From: Planctomycetota bacterium
GTDB lineage: Bacteria > Planctomycetota > B15-G4
Assembly: GCA_038212275.1 (NCBI GenBank)
Contig: JBBQUR010000018.1
Coordinates: 1-64,000, forward strand
DNA: 64,000 bases
Direction: 5' to 3'
Part shown: piece by piece, positions 12,001 to 18,000 of the stretch
Position numbering within the stretch: position 1 is the first letter of the stretch
How the letters are laid out: each line of letters starts with the position of its first letter
Position numbers: made by a program

Positions 12001-15000
12001 CCCATGATGAGGCACACGTCTCCGGGCCGCAGCATCGCCGCGACGGCGCGATCCGCCTCCTGGGCCGCGCCGAGGCGCAGGAGCCGGTCTCCGGTGCGCT
12101 TCGCCAGGTCACGGGCCAGGCCCTCGGCCTGCTCGGGATGGCGATCGCGCGAGATGAAGATATCGCAGAGGCCGACCGCATCGAAGGATTGCAGCGCCGA
12201 GGCGAAGCCGGGCAGGAAGTCCGCGGTGCGACTCACCTGGTGCGGCTGGAAGATGCCGACCACGCGCCGGTTCGGGAAGCGCGCGCGCACCGCGTCCGAC
12301 GCCGCCAGGAGCGCGTCGGGATGATGCGCGAAGTCGTCGATGACGCGCACGCCGTCGTGCTCGCCGAGGTCCTGCAGCCGTCGCGCGACGCCGAGGAAAC
12401 TCGCCACGTGCGGCAGCGCGAACCACAGCGGCACGCCGAGCGCCAGCACCGCCAGCAGGGCCGTGCGCAGGTTCTCCAGATTGTGCCGGCCGAGCAGCGG
12501 CAGCTCGAAAGGACCGCGCCCCCAGGCGCCGCCCTCGACGGTGCCGTGATAGCCGTGCGCATCTTCCGTCACGCGGTCGAGGTGCAGGTGATCCTCGACG
12601 TGCCAGCGCCGCGCGCCGACCGGACAGGACAGCTCGCAGTCGGCGCCGACGCCCGCGCCGAGCACGAGCGTGCCGCCCGGAGGCAGCCGCTGCGCGAACC
12701 GCGCGAAGGCCTGCACGACGCCGCGGGCATCGCCGAAGCAGTCGAGGTGATCGGGCGCGACGCCGTTGATGACCGCGATCTCGTACTCGAGCTGGAGGAA
12801 CGAGTGGTCGTACTCGCAGGCCTCGACGACCATCGCGTCGCCCTGCCCCCAGCCGCTGCTGTCGGGCAGTGACAGCGGACGCGCGCCGACGATCCACGCC
12901 GGGTCGAGCCCCGCCGAGCGCAGCAGGTGCGCCACGAGCGCCGTCGTCGTGGACTTGCCGTGCGTGCCGGCCACCGCGATGCCCCGCCGACCGGTCATCA
13001 CGCGCCCGAGCGCCTCGCTGTATTTGATGACGGGCACGTCGTGCGCGAGCGCGGCGGCCACCTCGGGATTGGAATCCGGCACCGCCGCCGAGCGAATGAG
13101 CAGCTGCGCATCGCCGACGTGGCGCGCATCATGGCCCGAGCGCACGGCGACACCGGCCGCGCGCAGTTCCTCGGCCTGGAAGGTCGCGGCGCTGTCGCTG
13201 CCGCTCACGACATGCCCTCGCGCCGCGAGCAGACGCGCCAGCGCCGAGAGCCCGCCTCCGCCGACGCCGACGCAGTGGAGCCGCTCGGGAAGCGCCCGCT
13301 GCGCGGGCGTCCGCGACGACGGCTGCGAGGGCGAGGACATCGAGATCACGTGCGGTGCTCGGCGGCGCCCAGCACGACGTCGGCCACATCGCTGGCTGCC
13401 TGCGGTCGCGCGACGCGCCGTGCCGCCGCGCTCATCTCCGGAAGCCGCGTCAGCGCATCGGACAGCAGGGACGCGGCCGTGCGCACGCCGGCCGGATCGT
13501 CGCGGCTCACCATGCAGGCGCCTCCGACGTCCACGAGCAGCTTGCCGTTGGCCTCCTGATGGTGGTCCGCATGATGCGGATACGGGACCAGCACCGACGG
13601 CGTACCGGTGCAGGCCAGCTCGGCGATGGTGCCGGCGCCTGAGCGGCACACGGCGACGTCGGCGAGTCCCCACACCGCAGACATGTCCGCCACGAACTGG
13701 CGGCGCACCACCAGCACGCGGCCCTGTCCGTCGGTGCGATCCGTCGGCGGCACGGGCTGGCCGCCCGAGATGTTCAGCACCTGCCACGAGTCGCCGGTGC
13801 GTGCCAGCACGTCCACGAGCTGCGGCAGCAGCGCGTTGAGATCGCCGGCGCCCTGGCTGCCGCCCATGAGCAGCAGCGTGCGGCGCGTGCTGTCGAGACC
13901 GAGCGTGGCCGCCGCCTCCGACCGCGTGCGTGGCGCCAGGTGCGGTGCCGGGTTGCCGGTGACTTGCGTGCTGTGCAGGCCGCGCGGCATGTCGTCGCCA
14001 TCCACGGTGAGGCAGGTGTGCTGGACGCGCTGGCCGAGCAGGCGGCGCTGGCCGAGCATCCGCTGCACCTTTCCGGCGCGCGCATTCTGCTCGAGCAGCA
14101 CCGAGGGCCGCCCGAAGAAGCCCAACAGCACGGCAGGCAGCGAGACCCAGCCGCCGAGCACCACGATGGCGTCCGGGTCGTAATCGCGCACCGCACGCTG
14201 CCAGCGCCGGCTCGCGTGGAACCACGAGCCGACATCCAGCGGTGACGGGCGCGTGCAGTCGCCGAAGAGGTCGCGGCTGCAGAGCTGCCTCGGTTCGAGC
14301 AGCGCGCGCTCCACCGGCCGTCCGGCGATGAGGAAGAGCGAGTCGTGTCCGCGACGGCGCAGTTCCTCGGCCACGGCGACACCCGGCGCGAGGTGGCCGC
14401 CCGTGCCACCTCCCAGAAACGCCACCTTTCTCGGGCGCTGATCTCGCGGGCCAGGCGGGCCGCGCTCATCCTGGGCCAGCTGCATGTCAGGGAATCCGCA
14501 GCACCTGGCCGAGCTTCAGCGCGTCCTTGCTCTTGAGGATGTCCTTGTTCGCGGCGAAGAGATCATCGGCGCGTGTTGCGCTGCCGAGGTACTTCTTCGC
14601 GATCGCCCCGAGCGTGTCACCCTTGACGACGGTGTGCGTCCGCCCCGGGACCGCCGCAGAGGCCGGCGCGGCCACAGGCTTGGCCGGCGTCGCCTTCACC
14701 GGCACGACCGGGGCCGGAACGGCGGCGCCCCCGGTGCCCGCAGCCTGCGCGGGAGCGGCAGCGACCACAGGCGCCTCGCCGCTGACCCGGATCGACATCC
14801 CGATCTTCAGCTTGTGCGGGTCGAGACCCGGGTTGAGCTTGACCAGTTCTTTCCAGCGCGACTCGCTGCCGAGGTAGCGCGCGGCAATCGTGGAGAGCGT
14901 CTCGCCCGAGGCCACCGTGTGCATGCCGCTCGGCGCGGTCACGACGACCGGCGCGCCGGCGGGCACGACCACGTTCAACGCAGCGGGTTCGTCCGACATC

Positions 15001-18000
15001 GCCGGGCGTGCGGAGGCGCGGTCACCCGGATAGGCGATCGGCTTCTCGTTCCAGTCGAAACTCGTGCCCGGCATGATGGGCACCACGCGCACGCGATTGC
15101 CCGCAGTGAGCGGAGCGCCATTCGTCGCCGACGCGCCCACCGCGGGCGCCTCGTCACCGATGACCACCGGCGCCATGTCGGGCGCGCTGCTGAAGCCGCC
15201 CTGCAAGCCGATGACGAGCAGAAGCCCGCCCACGAAAATCACTGCGGAAAGCCCGTATTTTTCGACATCACTCATGACAGGAACTCCCAACCACCAGTTG
15301 CTTTCACCCGGGTCACCACGCCCGGGAAACCACGCCCGCTCTCAGCCACCGGGTTCACCCCTGTGTGTGAGCGATGTCGCCCAGCGTGCTTCCAGTTGCG
15401 GATCTTCCTCCGGAGCACGCGCCAAACCAAGCAGCAAACCGATCGAGACGCACAGCATCAGCAGCGACGTGCCGCCTGCGCTGATGAACGGGAGCGGCAG
15501 GCCCTTGTTCGGCGCCACGGCCGTCACCACCGCGATGTTCAGCACGGCCTGCACCGCGACCTGCATGAGCAGGCCGGTGCCGACGATCAGCGAGAAGCGG
15601 CTGCGCATGCCGAGCAGCAGCCGCACGCCGTGCCAGAGGAACAGGGCGTACAGCACGACGATGCTTCCCGTGCCGACCAGTCCGAGTTCCTCGCCGATGA
15701 CGGCGAACAGGAAGTCGTTCTGCGCCTCCGGCAGCAGTCCCCACTTGGCCATGCCGTTGCCGAGTCCCGCGCCGAAGACGCCGCCGCTGCCAAGCGCAGT
15801 GAGCCCCTGCGTCACCTGGTAGTCCGTCCCCTTGTTCTGCCAGCCTTCGATGCGCTGGCGGAAGTGCGGGAAGAAGTACCAGGCGAAAACGGTCGCGGCG
15901 AGCAACGTCGGCACGAAGGCGACGAAGAGGTGCTTGGTGCGCGCGCCGCCCACCCACATGACGAGCACGGCCATGAAGAGCAGGTAGATCGAGCTGCCGT
16001 AGTCCGGCTCGAGGAAGACGAGCAGCGCCGGCACGATCGCCAGGCCGAAGGGAACGGCCAGTCCGTACTTCAGCTCGGAGAGCCGGTCGCGCAACGCCAC
16101 CATCCACGCGCCGATCATCAGGATCGTGGCCACGCGCGCCAGTTCGCTGGGCTGGAACGAGGCCCCGCCCACGCCGAACCAGCGCACCGCGCCGTTGCGT
16201 CGCGCCCCGACCGCCAGCAGCAGCACGAGCAGCGCGATGGCGATGATCCAGGCCGGCCGGGCCAGCGCGAAGAGCCGGCGCGGTCCGGTGCGCATCGCGA
16301 GGAGGAACGCGACCAGCGCGAGGCCCACCTTGGCCAGGTGACCGGCCAGCGGGTGCAGCACGCCACCGGGCCCCGGGTCGCGCAGCTCGTCCACCATCGC
16401 GGAGGAAAAGGCCATCGTGGCGCCGATCGCCAGCAGCGCCAGCATGCAGCCCGTCATGATGCGGGAGCTGGAGGCCATCTGCTCGGGCGTGGTGTAGGGG
16501 AGTTCGCGCATGGGGCTCAATTCAGGCGACCGCGAGGCTGGCCATGCCGGCGGCCGCGAACAGCACCGCGATGATCCAGAAGCGCGTCACGATGCGCGTC
16601 TCGGGCATGCCGCCGAATTGGAAATGATGGTGCAGGGGCGCGCAGCGCAGCAGCCGCTTGCCATGCGAATACTTGAAGTAGCCGACCTGCACGATGACCG
16701 AGAGCGCCTCGACCACGAAGACTCCGCCGACGAGCAGCAGCACGAGTTCGTGCTTGGTCACGACGGCGACGTAGCCGAGCAGGCTGCCCAGCGGGAGCGA
16801 GCCGGTGTCGCCCATGTAGACCAGCGCAGGCGCTGCGTTGAACCACAGAAAACCAAGGGTCGCGCCGACCATGGCCGTGCAGAACACGGTCATCTCCTGC
16901 GTGAGCGGCACGTAGAGCAGGTCCTTGCCGGGCAGCAGGCTCTCCGCGCGCCCGACCGCCACGCAGATCGCGGCCATGGCCAGGGCGGACACGACCATGC
17001 TTCCCGCGGCGAGGCCGTCCATGCCGTCCGTGAGATTCACCGCATTGCTGGTGCCCGTCACGACGAGCAGCACGAGCACGACGTGCGGGAGGCCGTGGAA
17101 CCACGAAAGGTCGAGCACCGCACCTTGCGTGAACGGGATGTGCAGCGCCAGCAGCTCGCTCGCGTTGGAGCGGCTCTTGAAGATCAGCGTGATGACCATG
17201 CCGAGCGCCAGCGCCACGAAGAATTGCAGCGTGTACTTGGCTTTCGCGGACAGCCCGCGCCGCTCGCGCCGGGTCAGCTTGACCCAGTCGTCGATGAATC
17301 CGATCAGCCCGTAGCCGAGCGTGGACAGCAGGCCGAGCAGCACGTAGTCGTTCTGCAGGTTGCCGCAGACGAGGCCCGCCACCAGAATCGCGCCGATGAT
17401 CATCACGCCGCCCATCGTGGGCGTCGCGCCCTTCTTCGCATTGATGCGGTTCAGCTCGGGCGCGTCGGTGTTGGTCTCCACCTCGTGGAACTGATGGCGG
17501 TGCAGCCAGCGCAGCAGCCGCGGGCCGACGATCAGCGCCACGGTGAAGGCGAGCACGGCGGACAGTGCGGCGCGCACGGCGAGTGAACCGAAGGGCCCGT
17601 GGGTCCCGGCTCCCAGCTCGTGCAGCAGCCAGAGGATCACGCCACGCTCGCCTGCGGTCGGGCCAGGTCGGCGACGACGGTGTCCAGGTGAATGCCGCGG
17701 CTGCCCTTGAGCAGCACGACGTCGCCCTCGCGCAGCAGGGCAGCGAGCTCCGCGCTGGCCTGCGCCGTGCCGCGGCAGTTCCGCGCGGCGTGCTCGGGCA
17801 GTCCGGCCGCCCGCGCGCCGGCCAGCAGGTCAGGGCCGTGCTCGCCCACGGTCACGACGAGCGCCGGAGCCAGCGCCGCAAGCCGGGCGCCGGCATCGCG
17901 GTGCAGCGAAGCCGCGGAGGTGCCCAGCTCGAGCATGTCCCCCGCCACCACGACGAGGCGGCCGCCCAGCTTGAGCTCGGCCAGGGTCGCCACCGCCGCG

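Follow-up and report, generated by a model that had tools for sequence, protein, structure and literature searches.

The window analysed here, a stretch of 64,000 nucleotides of contig JBBQUR010000018.1 from a planctomycete of the lineage B15-G4, carries a cluster of genes for division and the cell wall (dcw), with the order mraZ-rsmH-x-ftsI-murE-murF-mraY-ftsW-LysM-murG-murC-murB (Table 1). Pfam and NCBIfam agree with the first-pass annotation on this order from mraZ to murB, with an anchored tandem-LysM gene flanked by ftsW and murG. Gene x, which is FtsL-like and could be aligned with 22 positional homologues, has no match in Pfam or NCBIfam. A separate rodA sits in the mre cluster (contig C8), and murD is located on contig C10, apart from the dcw cluster. 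The reported lack of ftsQ is true of the cluster and not of the genome, in which contig C1 carries a divergent ftsQ-like gene. Nothing above the cut-off was found for FtsB in this genome, nor was an FtsA partner found in it, and the FtsZ Pfam family is missing from all 42 genomes of the class. On a rough estimate of three to six LysM genes among 3800, chance would put one into a cluster of 12 genes at about 0.01-0.02 per genome; kin genomes are not independent. The genes around ftsW and murG are probably co-expressed; a promoter scan of the coding strand from ftsW to murC, which is uninformative at 70% GC, gave 0 sites and no terminator-like site.

Table 1. Genes of the dcw cluster and features of the LysM gene, with positions in the window.
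Feature	Position	Strand	Basis
murB (start approximate)	11036..11935	-	Pfam
murC	11934..13292	-	TIGR01082 over cut-off
murG; ATG 1 nt past the LysM stop codon	13346..14485	-	ORF, Pfam
Anchored tandem-LysM gene, 262 aa	14487..15275	-	ORF with ATG start, Pfam, hydropathy, AlphaFold2
LysM domain 2, aa 212-262; D220-T221 of the G-D-T-L loop retained	14490..14642	-	Pfam, AlphaFold2
LysM domain 1, aa 118-165	14781..14924	-	Genome profile search, AlphaFold2
Aromatic/proline linker motif F-x-F/W-x-E-P-P-x-x-Y-P-G, aa 73-84	15024..15059	-	Conservation, pLDDT
Predicted transmembrane helix, aa 9-25, cysteine-free	15201..15251	-	Hydropathy; model helix 3-24
E5-K6-Y7-G8 motif directly ahead of helix	15252..15263	-	Conservation
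GGGAG, 8 nt ahead of ATG; likely ribosome-binding site	15284..15288	-	Sequence
ftsW (SEDS polymerase)	15342..16511	-	PF01098; TIGR02614 best
mraY	16522..17640	-	Pfam
murF (start approximate)	17637..19010	-	Mur ligase domains, position
murE	19010..20539	-	Mur ligase domains, position
ftsI, class B PBP; S-x-x-K, S-x-N, K-T conserved	20559..22355	-	Pfam, motifs
Gene x, FtsL-like	22355..22603	-	Helix and coiled-coil pattern, canonical position
rsmH (mraW)	22600..23508	-	Pfam
mraZ	23523..23966	-	NCBIfam

The build reported for the 262-aa protein, an N-terminal anchor, a linker and two LysM domains, is borne out by ORF, Pfam, hydropathy and AlphaFold2 alike. PF01476 matches it in two stretches (E 2.3e-22; 79 bits against a cut-off of 20.9), placed at 14784-14921 and 14490-14636 by the genome profile search, and the beta-alpha-alpha-beta fold seen with AlphaFold2 and Foldseek confirms the LysM membership. 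The hydrophobic peak covers aa 9-27. In the AlphaFold2 model aa 3-24 form a helix and both LysM domains take up their fold, with linkers of low confidence; the linker is long, disordered, of Pro/Ala type and variable in length. Pfam finds no catalytic domain in the protein; neither an M23/LytM domain, with NCBIfam LysM-LytM models scoring far below their cut-offs, nor a SPOR domain is present. Three other readings of the gene were rejected, namely a shadow ORF (start, helix and domains are all conserved), a lipoprotein (the N-terminal segment has no Cys) and phage tail protein X (a weak cross-match from the LysM fold).

Solved LysM structures place the domain nearest to the Kbp/YgaU and TsaP subtype, the closest by sequence being 7pvc of Kbp (E 3.6e-17; 50% identity and rmsd 1.0 over 52 columns). 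A binding mode of LysM for GlcNAc-X-GlcNAc or peptidoglycan is described in PMC4083421; since Kbp is a potassium-binding protein, glycan binding by the present protein is assumed from its LysM family. The protein differs from Kbp/YgaU in having a membrane anchor and two LysM domains and in lacking a BON domain, and it does not belong to that family (PRK11198, 66 against 134 bits). The name 'nucleoid-associated protein YgaU', given automatically to its relatives, derives from LysM alone.

Homologues were found in 26 of the 42 class genomes at E<=1e-12, the same count as before, and in 37 at 1e-8. When the count was anchored on ftsW and the next gene then identified, the LysM gene followed ftsW directly in 40 of the 41 relatives, a stronger synteny than the 20 of 27 loci noted earlier: ftsW-LysM-murG lies on one contig in 36, ftsW-LysM is ended by the contig end in four, and the remaining relative (G033, 73% complete) has a RodA-like match only. 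With this genome counted in, 41 of the class's 42 genomes have the gene, and the ftsW-LysM arrangement spans four of the five families, not three as had been stated. Across the phylum, a LysM gene occurs within the murG window in 27 of 70 other families, in four positions; the other 43 have none there, and three of these have one beside ftsI. In 12 families its place is between murG and murC, at a distance from both ftsW and ftsI. Where murG has departed, ftsW-LysM-murB or ftsW-LysM-murC remains (three genomes of f16 and f74), and the order rsmH-LysM-ftsI is seen in 7 of 20 best-hit regions. Seen phylum-wide, the gene is dcw-resident without a fixed place; the description 'fixed between ftsW and murG' applies to the class but not to the phylum. 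A second profile for canonical-type LysM domains revealed no further gene in 80 survey loci, a scan of named genomes gave only four planctomycete loci, and an Atlas search returned LysM clusters from planctomycetes only.

The start codon and an E/D-K/R-Y-G motif are conserved in 24 aligned class proteins, a sample picked by that motif, with Y7 and G8 invariant in all 24. In a wider, partly motif-picked set of 43 proteins, G8, E/D5 and K/R6 are present in 43 and Y7 in 39, and the LysM 2 loop retains D220 in 35 and T221 in 33. The strict linker pattern was found in 23/43 proteins and is missing from family f3 and outside the class; local pLDDT reaches 81 at aa 71-80, within an otherwise low-confidence linker. 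The only invariant residues are G, L, N, P and Y7, and no active site is evident because E5, D152, D220 and T221 are the only conserved polar residues. The conserved N-terminus would fit a retained anchor better than a cleaved signal.

Outside the class, E-K/R-x-G ahead of the helix (by hydropathy) is found in 8 of 8 ftsW-adjacent two-LysM proteins, in only 1 of 12 encoded after murG and in none of 6 before ftsI. This match of motif and position may reflect kinship, because both are inherited. In addition, the motif may serve another partner, since 10 of 15 non-dcw paralogues also have E-K/R ahead of the helix. Divergence of the helix correlates poorly with that of FtsW, at rho 0.18, as against 0.67 between FtsW and FtsI. 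In a FastTree of 59 sequences and 130 columns, from which L094 was left out as its N-terminus is missing, dcw and non-dcw copies are intermixed with weak support, and the tree is too weak to settle orthology.

The chlamydial gene order is presumably murD-nlpD-ftsW; the planctomycete gene differs in lying between ftsW and murG, the comparison with chlamydial NlpD being one of descriptions. Waddlia NlpD and C. pneumoniae Cpn0902 likewise have an N-terminal signal or transmembrane segment and two C-terminal LysM domains without LytM (PMC4083426), and are coded among wall and division genes in a host without FtsZ (PMC4083446). Septal location of NlpD is described in PMC4083446 and PMC4083426. They differ in that peptidase activity is reported for chlamydial NlpD, whereas the planctomycete protein has no visible catalytic residues. 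A 2016 review did not find NlpD in Planctomycetes (PMC5147048), and the present gene would extend the protein type of chlamydial septa to this phylum. P0065 bears a Chlamydiales label and looks like one of the planctomycete family. A second comparison is offered by the P0105-type dcw family, FtsZ-positive and presumably of Verrucomicrobiota, which has a hydrophobic anchor, a Pro-rich linker, two LysM domains and a gene touching ftsW; this anchored two-LysM gene lies between mraY and ftsW in clusters keeping ftsQ-ftsA-ftsZ. It differs in its place upstream of ftsW, an anchor ending in an invariant cysteine, the canonical LysM subtype and the ftsQAZ host, and no homology beyond the LysM pair was found (hhalign covers aa 111-262 only). 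With the planctomycete gene, a LysM protein encoded in the dcw cluster would be a feature of all three PVC branches.

According to PMC13396833, the helix of Bacillus subtilis YneA binds FtsW TM7, K5/E6 beside the helix are needed, and peptidoglycan binding requires the LysM D-T pair. The two proteins share helix and LysM, a charged pair before the helix and the D-T pair; YneA differs as an SOS-induced inhibitor, 2.5 times shorter and with one LysM, whereas the planctomycete gene lies within the dcw cluster. Membership in the YneA family failed (PRK14125 in NCBIfam, 24 bits against a cut-off of 60, through LysM only; two LysM domains here), as did membership among the LysM-LytM proteins E. coli NlpD, DipM and ActS, for want of an M23/LytM domain. 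E. coli FtsN and DedD are bitopic too, with a disordered linker bearing a short conserved motif and a C-terminal glycan-binding domain (PMC8998562), but this domain is SPOR rather than LysM and no sequence likeness was found. Among the 42 class genomes, SPOR gave a match in one.

The LysM protein probably assists the enzymes that build the wall, in a role so far overlooked, and resembles a protein of the chlamydial division site. We give about an even chance to its being a non-catalytic accessory subunit of FtsW-FtsI, docked by the E-K-Y-G helix and gripping nascent glycan with its LysM domains. It would belong, as a single-pass inner-membrane protein, to the wall synthase FtsW-FtsI(-FtsL-FtsQ): the short N-terminus and the E-K-Y-G helix would dock on FtsW or FtsI within the membrane, the flexible linker would span the periplasm and the two LysM domains would hold glycan strands. 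The synthase would thereby be coupled to newly made wall and the place or rate of synthesis tuned, with an effect that may be activating (FtsN/DedD-like) or braking (YneA-like). The link to FtsW-FtsI is one of context: the gene stays next to ftsW or ftsI where clusters have broken up or lost murG, and an essential V. spinosum gene, VSP_RS19445, presumably the LysM gene of that species, lies between murD and ftsW/murG by locus-tag order. Against it stands Planctopirus limnophila, in which neither ftsI nor ftsW is essential (PMC12283558 Table 1) and the six genes around ftsI (Plim_1787-1792) all have insertion indices of 0.09-0.13. The earlier interpretation as a whole is partly supported: its FtsW-FtsI partnership gains from this context, the lack of a catalytic domain and the YneA precedent, and the binding itself is something we infer. 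In a bolder and rather doubtful form, the protein might be the PVC superphylum's own equivalent of FtsN/DedD, an overlooked part of the divisome. Its grip on FtsW by the E-K-Y-G helix and its binding of new glycan would set up a feedback in which newly made wall holds the synthase and further wall follows; already in place beside FtsZ, this loop would have kept the septal synthase focused once FtsZ, FtsA and FtsB had disappeared from planctomycetes and chlamydiae.

LysM proteins often serve hydrolases, and SweC with FtsEX-CwlO and E. coli NlpD with AmiC are models for hydrolase regulation. The LysM protein could likewise recruit a peptidoglycan hydrolase to places where wall is synthesised, or regulate one there, with the linker motif as docking site, which we hold to be unlikely. 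A LysM paralogue directly ahead of anmK, a wall-recycling kinase, in four class genomes, an Amidase_2 gene and an M23-family gene in this genome, and the altered cross-linking caused by chlamydial NlpD in E. coli (PMC4083446) speak for such a role; however, the protein itself has no M23/LytM domain, FtsX was not found in this genome, Amidase_3 occurs in 21/42 class genomes but is missing here, as against 41/42 for the LysM gene, and about half of the proteins miss the linker motif. Still less likely is a role as a simple tether of the inner membrane to the wall, expressed together with wall synthesis but having no particular protein as partner. The variable Pro/Ala linker, the varying cluster position and the build shared by several paralogues would suit a tether, for which the conserved E-K-Y-G-L-x-A face would be superfluous and the tracking of ftsW or ftsI through rearrangements unexpected. 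We regard it as very improbable that the protein is itself a DD-carboxypeptidase or endopeptidase: purified Cpn0902, of the same domain order (helix and two LysM domains only), freed D-Ala from lipid II (PMC4083426), but no Ser, His, Cys or Lys is conserved beyond the N-terminus, there is no third folded domain, and the likeness to NlpD comes from descriptions, not from a sequence alignment.

Least probable of all is a planctomycete invention replacing FtsZ as division-site marker, for although FtsZ is found in 0/42 class genomes and the LysM gene in 41, dcw LysM genes occur in 1/7 survey loci with ftsA against 26/63 without, and LysM subtype and N-terminus are unlike those of the FtsZ-positive family, the ftsA split is non-significant (Fisher p 0.24; kin not independent), the same build adjoins ftsW where the cluster retains ftsQAZ, NlpD of chlamydiae arrives at the septum later than wall synthesis and RodZ (PMC4083446), and the protein has hardly any cytoplasmic part that might polymerise. 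The LysM gene would be either an ancient dcw component of PVC type or the outcome of a parallel recruitment, and no FtsZ replacement. Its proposed place in the 'missing division machinery' is weakened by the ftsQ-ftsA-ftsZ clusters with the same build, the chlamydial NlpD precedent, the 43/70 families without the gene in the murG window and the non-essential ftsI and ftsW of Planctopirus limnophila.

The way in which planctomycetes divide in the absence of FtsZ is still under question (PMC5147048, PMC12673574). The gene provides a specific candidate wall-synthase partner with defined residues (E5, K6, Y7, G8; D220, T221); it leaves the choice of the division site unexplained and may be dispensable in budding species. 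Our literature search gave no description of this gene in planctomycetes, though Pilhofer 2008, Megrian 2022 and Wiegand 2020 may already show it; the word 'LysM' does not occur in the main text of PMC5147048, of PMC12283558 or of PMC12673574, and the gene may be shown in Fig. 1c and Suppl. Fig. 6 of PMC4083446, Fig. 7B of PMC4803751 and Fig. S5 of PMC12283558. An FtsZ signature pattern was discarded because it had 0 matches even in loci with Pfam-confirmed FtsZ. Some planctomycete genomes retain a degenerate ftsA-ftsZ.

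Annotation of the window genes with Pfam and NCBIfam confirms the dcw order of the first-pass annotation, mraZ-rsmH-x-ftsI-murE-murF-mraY-ftsW-LysM-murG-murC-murB. The LysM gene, whose ATG is preceded by GGGAG, follows ftsW after a gap of 66 nt, and murG begins 1 nt downstream. The earlier count of homologues in 26 of the 42 class genomes (E<=1e-12) was reproduced, and synteny was re-counted with ftsW as anchor, so that the choice of loci is independent of the LysM gene. The order ftsW-LysM-murG, previously claimed for three families of the class, occurs on one contig in 36 of the 41 relatives; in four more the contig ends after ftsW and the LysM gene, and in G033 (73% complete) the sole match to the anchor is RodA-like. 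The four LysM loci lacking ftsW/murG flanks in the class search are paralogues. The LysM gene is real and well conserved.

Pfam finds two LysM stretches in the product and no other match of weight, and the AlphaFold2 model contains a helix (residues 3-24), low-confidence linkers, and two LysM folds spanning roughly residues 118-165 and 212-262. Two elements outside the LysMs are conserved in the alignment of class proteins, namely E/D-K/R-Y-G immediately N-terminal to the helix and, within the linker (residues 73-84), a motif of aromatic and proline residues. G8 is invariant (43/43) and Y7 is present in 39/43 of a protein set partly chosen by the same motif, a choice that excluded G032 (Q replaces K). 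By a strict pattern, the linker motif is found in 23 of the 43 proteins, none of which belongs to family f3 or comes from outside the class. The simplest reading is that the protein is a non-catalytic partner of FtsW-FtsI. The domains, the motif and the gene order are established here; with the topology, binding and function that we infer, the conserved helix face would dock in the membrane on FtsW-FtsI, the LysM domains would hold new glycan, and the synthase would thereby be held at, or tuned by, its own product. The helix of YneA binds FtsW TM7, and LysM binding is required for YneA action, as described in PMC13396833.

The protein is a variation on the chlamydial NlpD-type dcw LysM protein. 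According to PMC4083446, chlamydial NlpD combines a signal or helix with two LysMs, and its gene is located among those for the wall and for division; the protein binds the sacculus and reaches the septum only after wall synthesis. The new part is the dcw LysM gene in planctomycetes, of which no description was found in the literature searched for this gene; a review passage states that NlpD is absent from Planctomycetes (PMC5147048). The protein could possibly be a hydrolase helper, a plain tether or a cryptic peptidase. Amidase_3 occurs in 21 and SPOR in 1 of the 42 class genomes, and FtsX was not found in the genome under study (G000). DD-carboxypeptidase activity is reported for chlamydial Cpn0902 (PMC4083426); no conserved catalytic-type residue was found among the 43 aligned proteins. 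Two observations count against a vital role: neither ftsI nor ftsW is essential in P. limnophila (PMC12283558), and insertion indices range from 0.09 to 0.13 for the six genes around its ftsI, none of them named LysM in the supplements of PMC10632474. The V. spinosum gene VSP_RS19445 is listed as essential (PMC12283558); by tag order it lies between murD and ftsW/murG, its product being unnamed in the excerpts of PMC12283558 and PMC4803751.

Features of the window, of other contigs (C1, C10) of G000, and of fetched loci (L numbers)
Feature	Coordinates	Strand	Remarks
LysM gene	window 14487-15275	-	ORF, 262 aa
Gene x	window 22355-22603	-	FtsL-like; position conserved; no family match
Ribonucleotide reductase barrel gene and TSCPD-domain frame	window 7761-10804		directly downstream of murB
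Divergent FtsQ-like gene	G000:C1:~24170-25228 (L287:6171-7229)		outside dcw cluster, adjoins rplM; profile match
ddl-ftsQ-ftsA and degenerate ftsZ	L129:15245-18604 (G111)		dcw cluster end; Tubulin over cut-off
ddl-ftsQ-ftsA and degenerate ftsZ	L120:15633-18871 (G090)		dcw cluster end; Tubulin weak
ddl-ftsQ-ftsA and degenerate ftsZ	L144:933-4292 (G213)		dcw cluster end; Tubulin over cut-off
FtsZ-positive P0105-type cluster	L202:7122-14079
Lipoprotein-like single-LysM gene	L127:8619-9638 (G104)		fills ftsW-murG slot
LysM paralogue (helix, two LysMs)	G000:C10:146326-147174 (L164:8327-9175)		directly before anmK

As first noted, FtsZ has no family match in the genome (91% complete); none of the class genomes has one either (0/42). 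FtsK, MreBCD, PBP2, RodA and murD are encoded away from the cluster, and FtsB gave no match over cut-off in G000. The reported lack of ftsQ holds for the cluster and fails for the genome. A profile built from 24 ORFs located after murB/ddl/murC in loci of the phylum survey, which matches canonical FtsQ at E 2e-16, detects a divergent FtsQ-like gene missed by Pfam (E 3e-26). The place after murB, occupied here by the ribonucleotide reductase barrel gene and the TSCPD-domain frame, is the usual site of ddl-ftsQ. Unlike the rest of the class, G031 carries a canonical-looking FtsQ POTRA match at a contig end (L284, contig C59; E 2e-14), which may be contamination.

It is unlikely that the LysM protein substitutes for FtsZ, since proteins of this build also occur alongside FtsZ and it has no cytoplasmic domain, although the LysM gene is rare in ftsA-keeping loci (1 of 7 versus 26 of 63 others, a difference that is not significant). 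P0105, retrieved by protein search (E 3.6e-20), carries two LysMs that a Pro-rich linker joins to an anchor. Among the best 80 of 273 metagenome loci, mraY lies upstream of the P0105-type gene in 61 and ftsW lies downstream of it in 61, with the remaining flanks lost to contig ends, and 21 of the 80 contain ftsZ matches. Pfam identifies ddl-ftsQ-ftsA-ftsZ in L202 and ftsA-ftsZ in two further loci. The host is probably a member of Verrucomicrobiota, as supported by a figure legend of PMC4803751 in which LysM genes are marked in verrucomicrobial murB/C neighbourhoods. The alignment of the P0105 and planctomycete families is confined to the LysM pair, too little to establish common descent. In the FtsZ-positive clusters (L202 and related L184-L263), mraY is separated from the LysM gene by a 106-aa ORF, and no murE, murD or murC matches were found.

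Within Planctomycetota, the degenerate ftsZ products of L129, L120 and L144 retain an FtsZ-like C-terminal peptide, and seven of the 201 phylum genomes have an FtsZ_C match, which exceeds the cut-off in five. These genes conflict with the statement that ftsZ was lost in all planctomycetes (PMC12673574); however, contamination or mis-binning is possible.

The 201 phylum genomes were searched with the LysM family profile and MurG, giving 141 murG places outside the class among the matches listed (51 more matches exist), from which one locus per family for 70 families and 10 second members were surveyed. A LysM gene lies inside the cluster in 27/70 families, as ftsW-LysM-murG (8), murG-LysM(-murC) (12), after murB (2) or before ftsI (5); in 43/70, no LysM gene was found in the murG window (<=19 kb), many clusters being split or cut. 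The regions of the best profile hits (n=20) show rsmH-LysM-ftsI in 7, murG-LysM-murC in 1 and places outside dcw clusters in 12, and add families f6, f8 and f72. Families f16 and f74 keep the gene after ftsW despite the departure of murG. The gene is thus dcw-resident, but its position moves, and the tree does not reliably separate dcw from non-dcw copies. Nearly all the LysM proteins from the surveyed clusters share one build, in which a short N-terminus and a helix are followed by a linker and by either one LysM or two. In family f60, a further LysM gene of another, lipoprotein-like type stands between ftsW and murG, and in L127, where a lipoprotein-like single-LysM gene takes that slot, a helix and two-LysM gene precedes ftsI. 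P0065, labelled Chlamydiales at NCBI, is a planctomycete-type member by sequence (Q-I-E-R-Y-G start), and the label is probably wrong. The pairing of a LysM paralogue with anmK recurs in three more class genomes among those fetched, which suggests a link to wall recycling.
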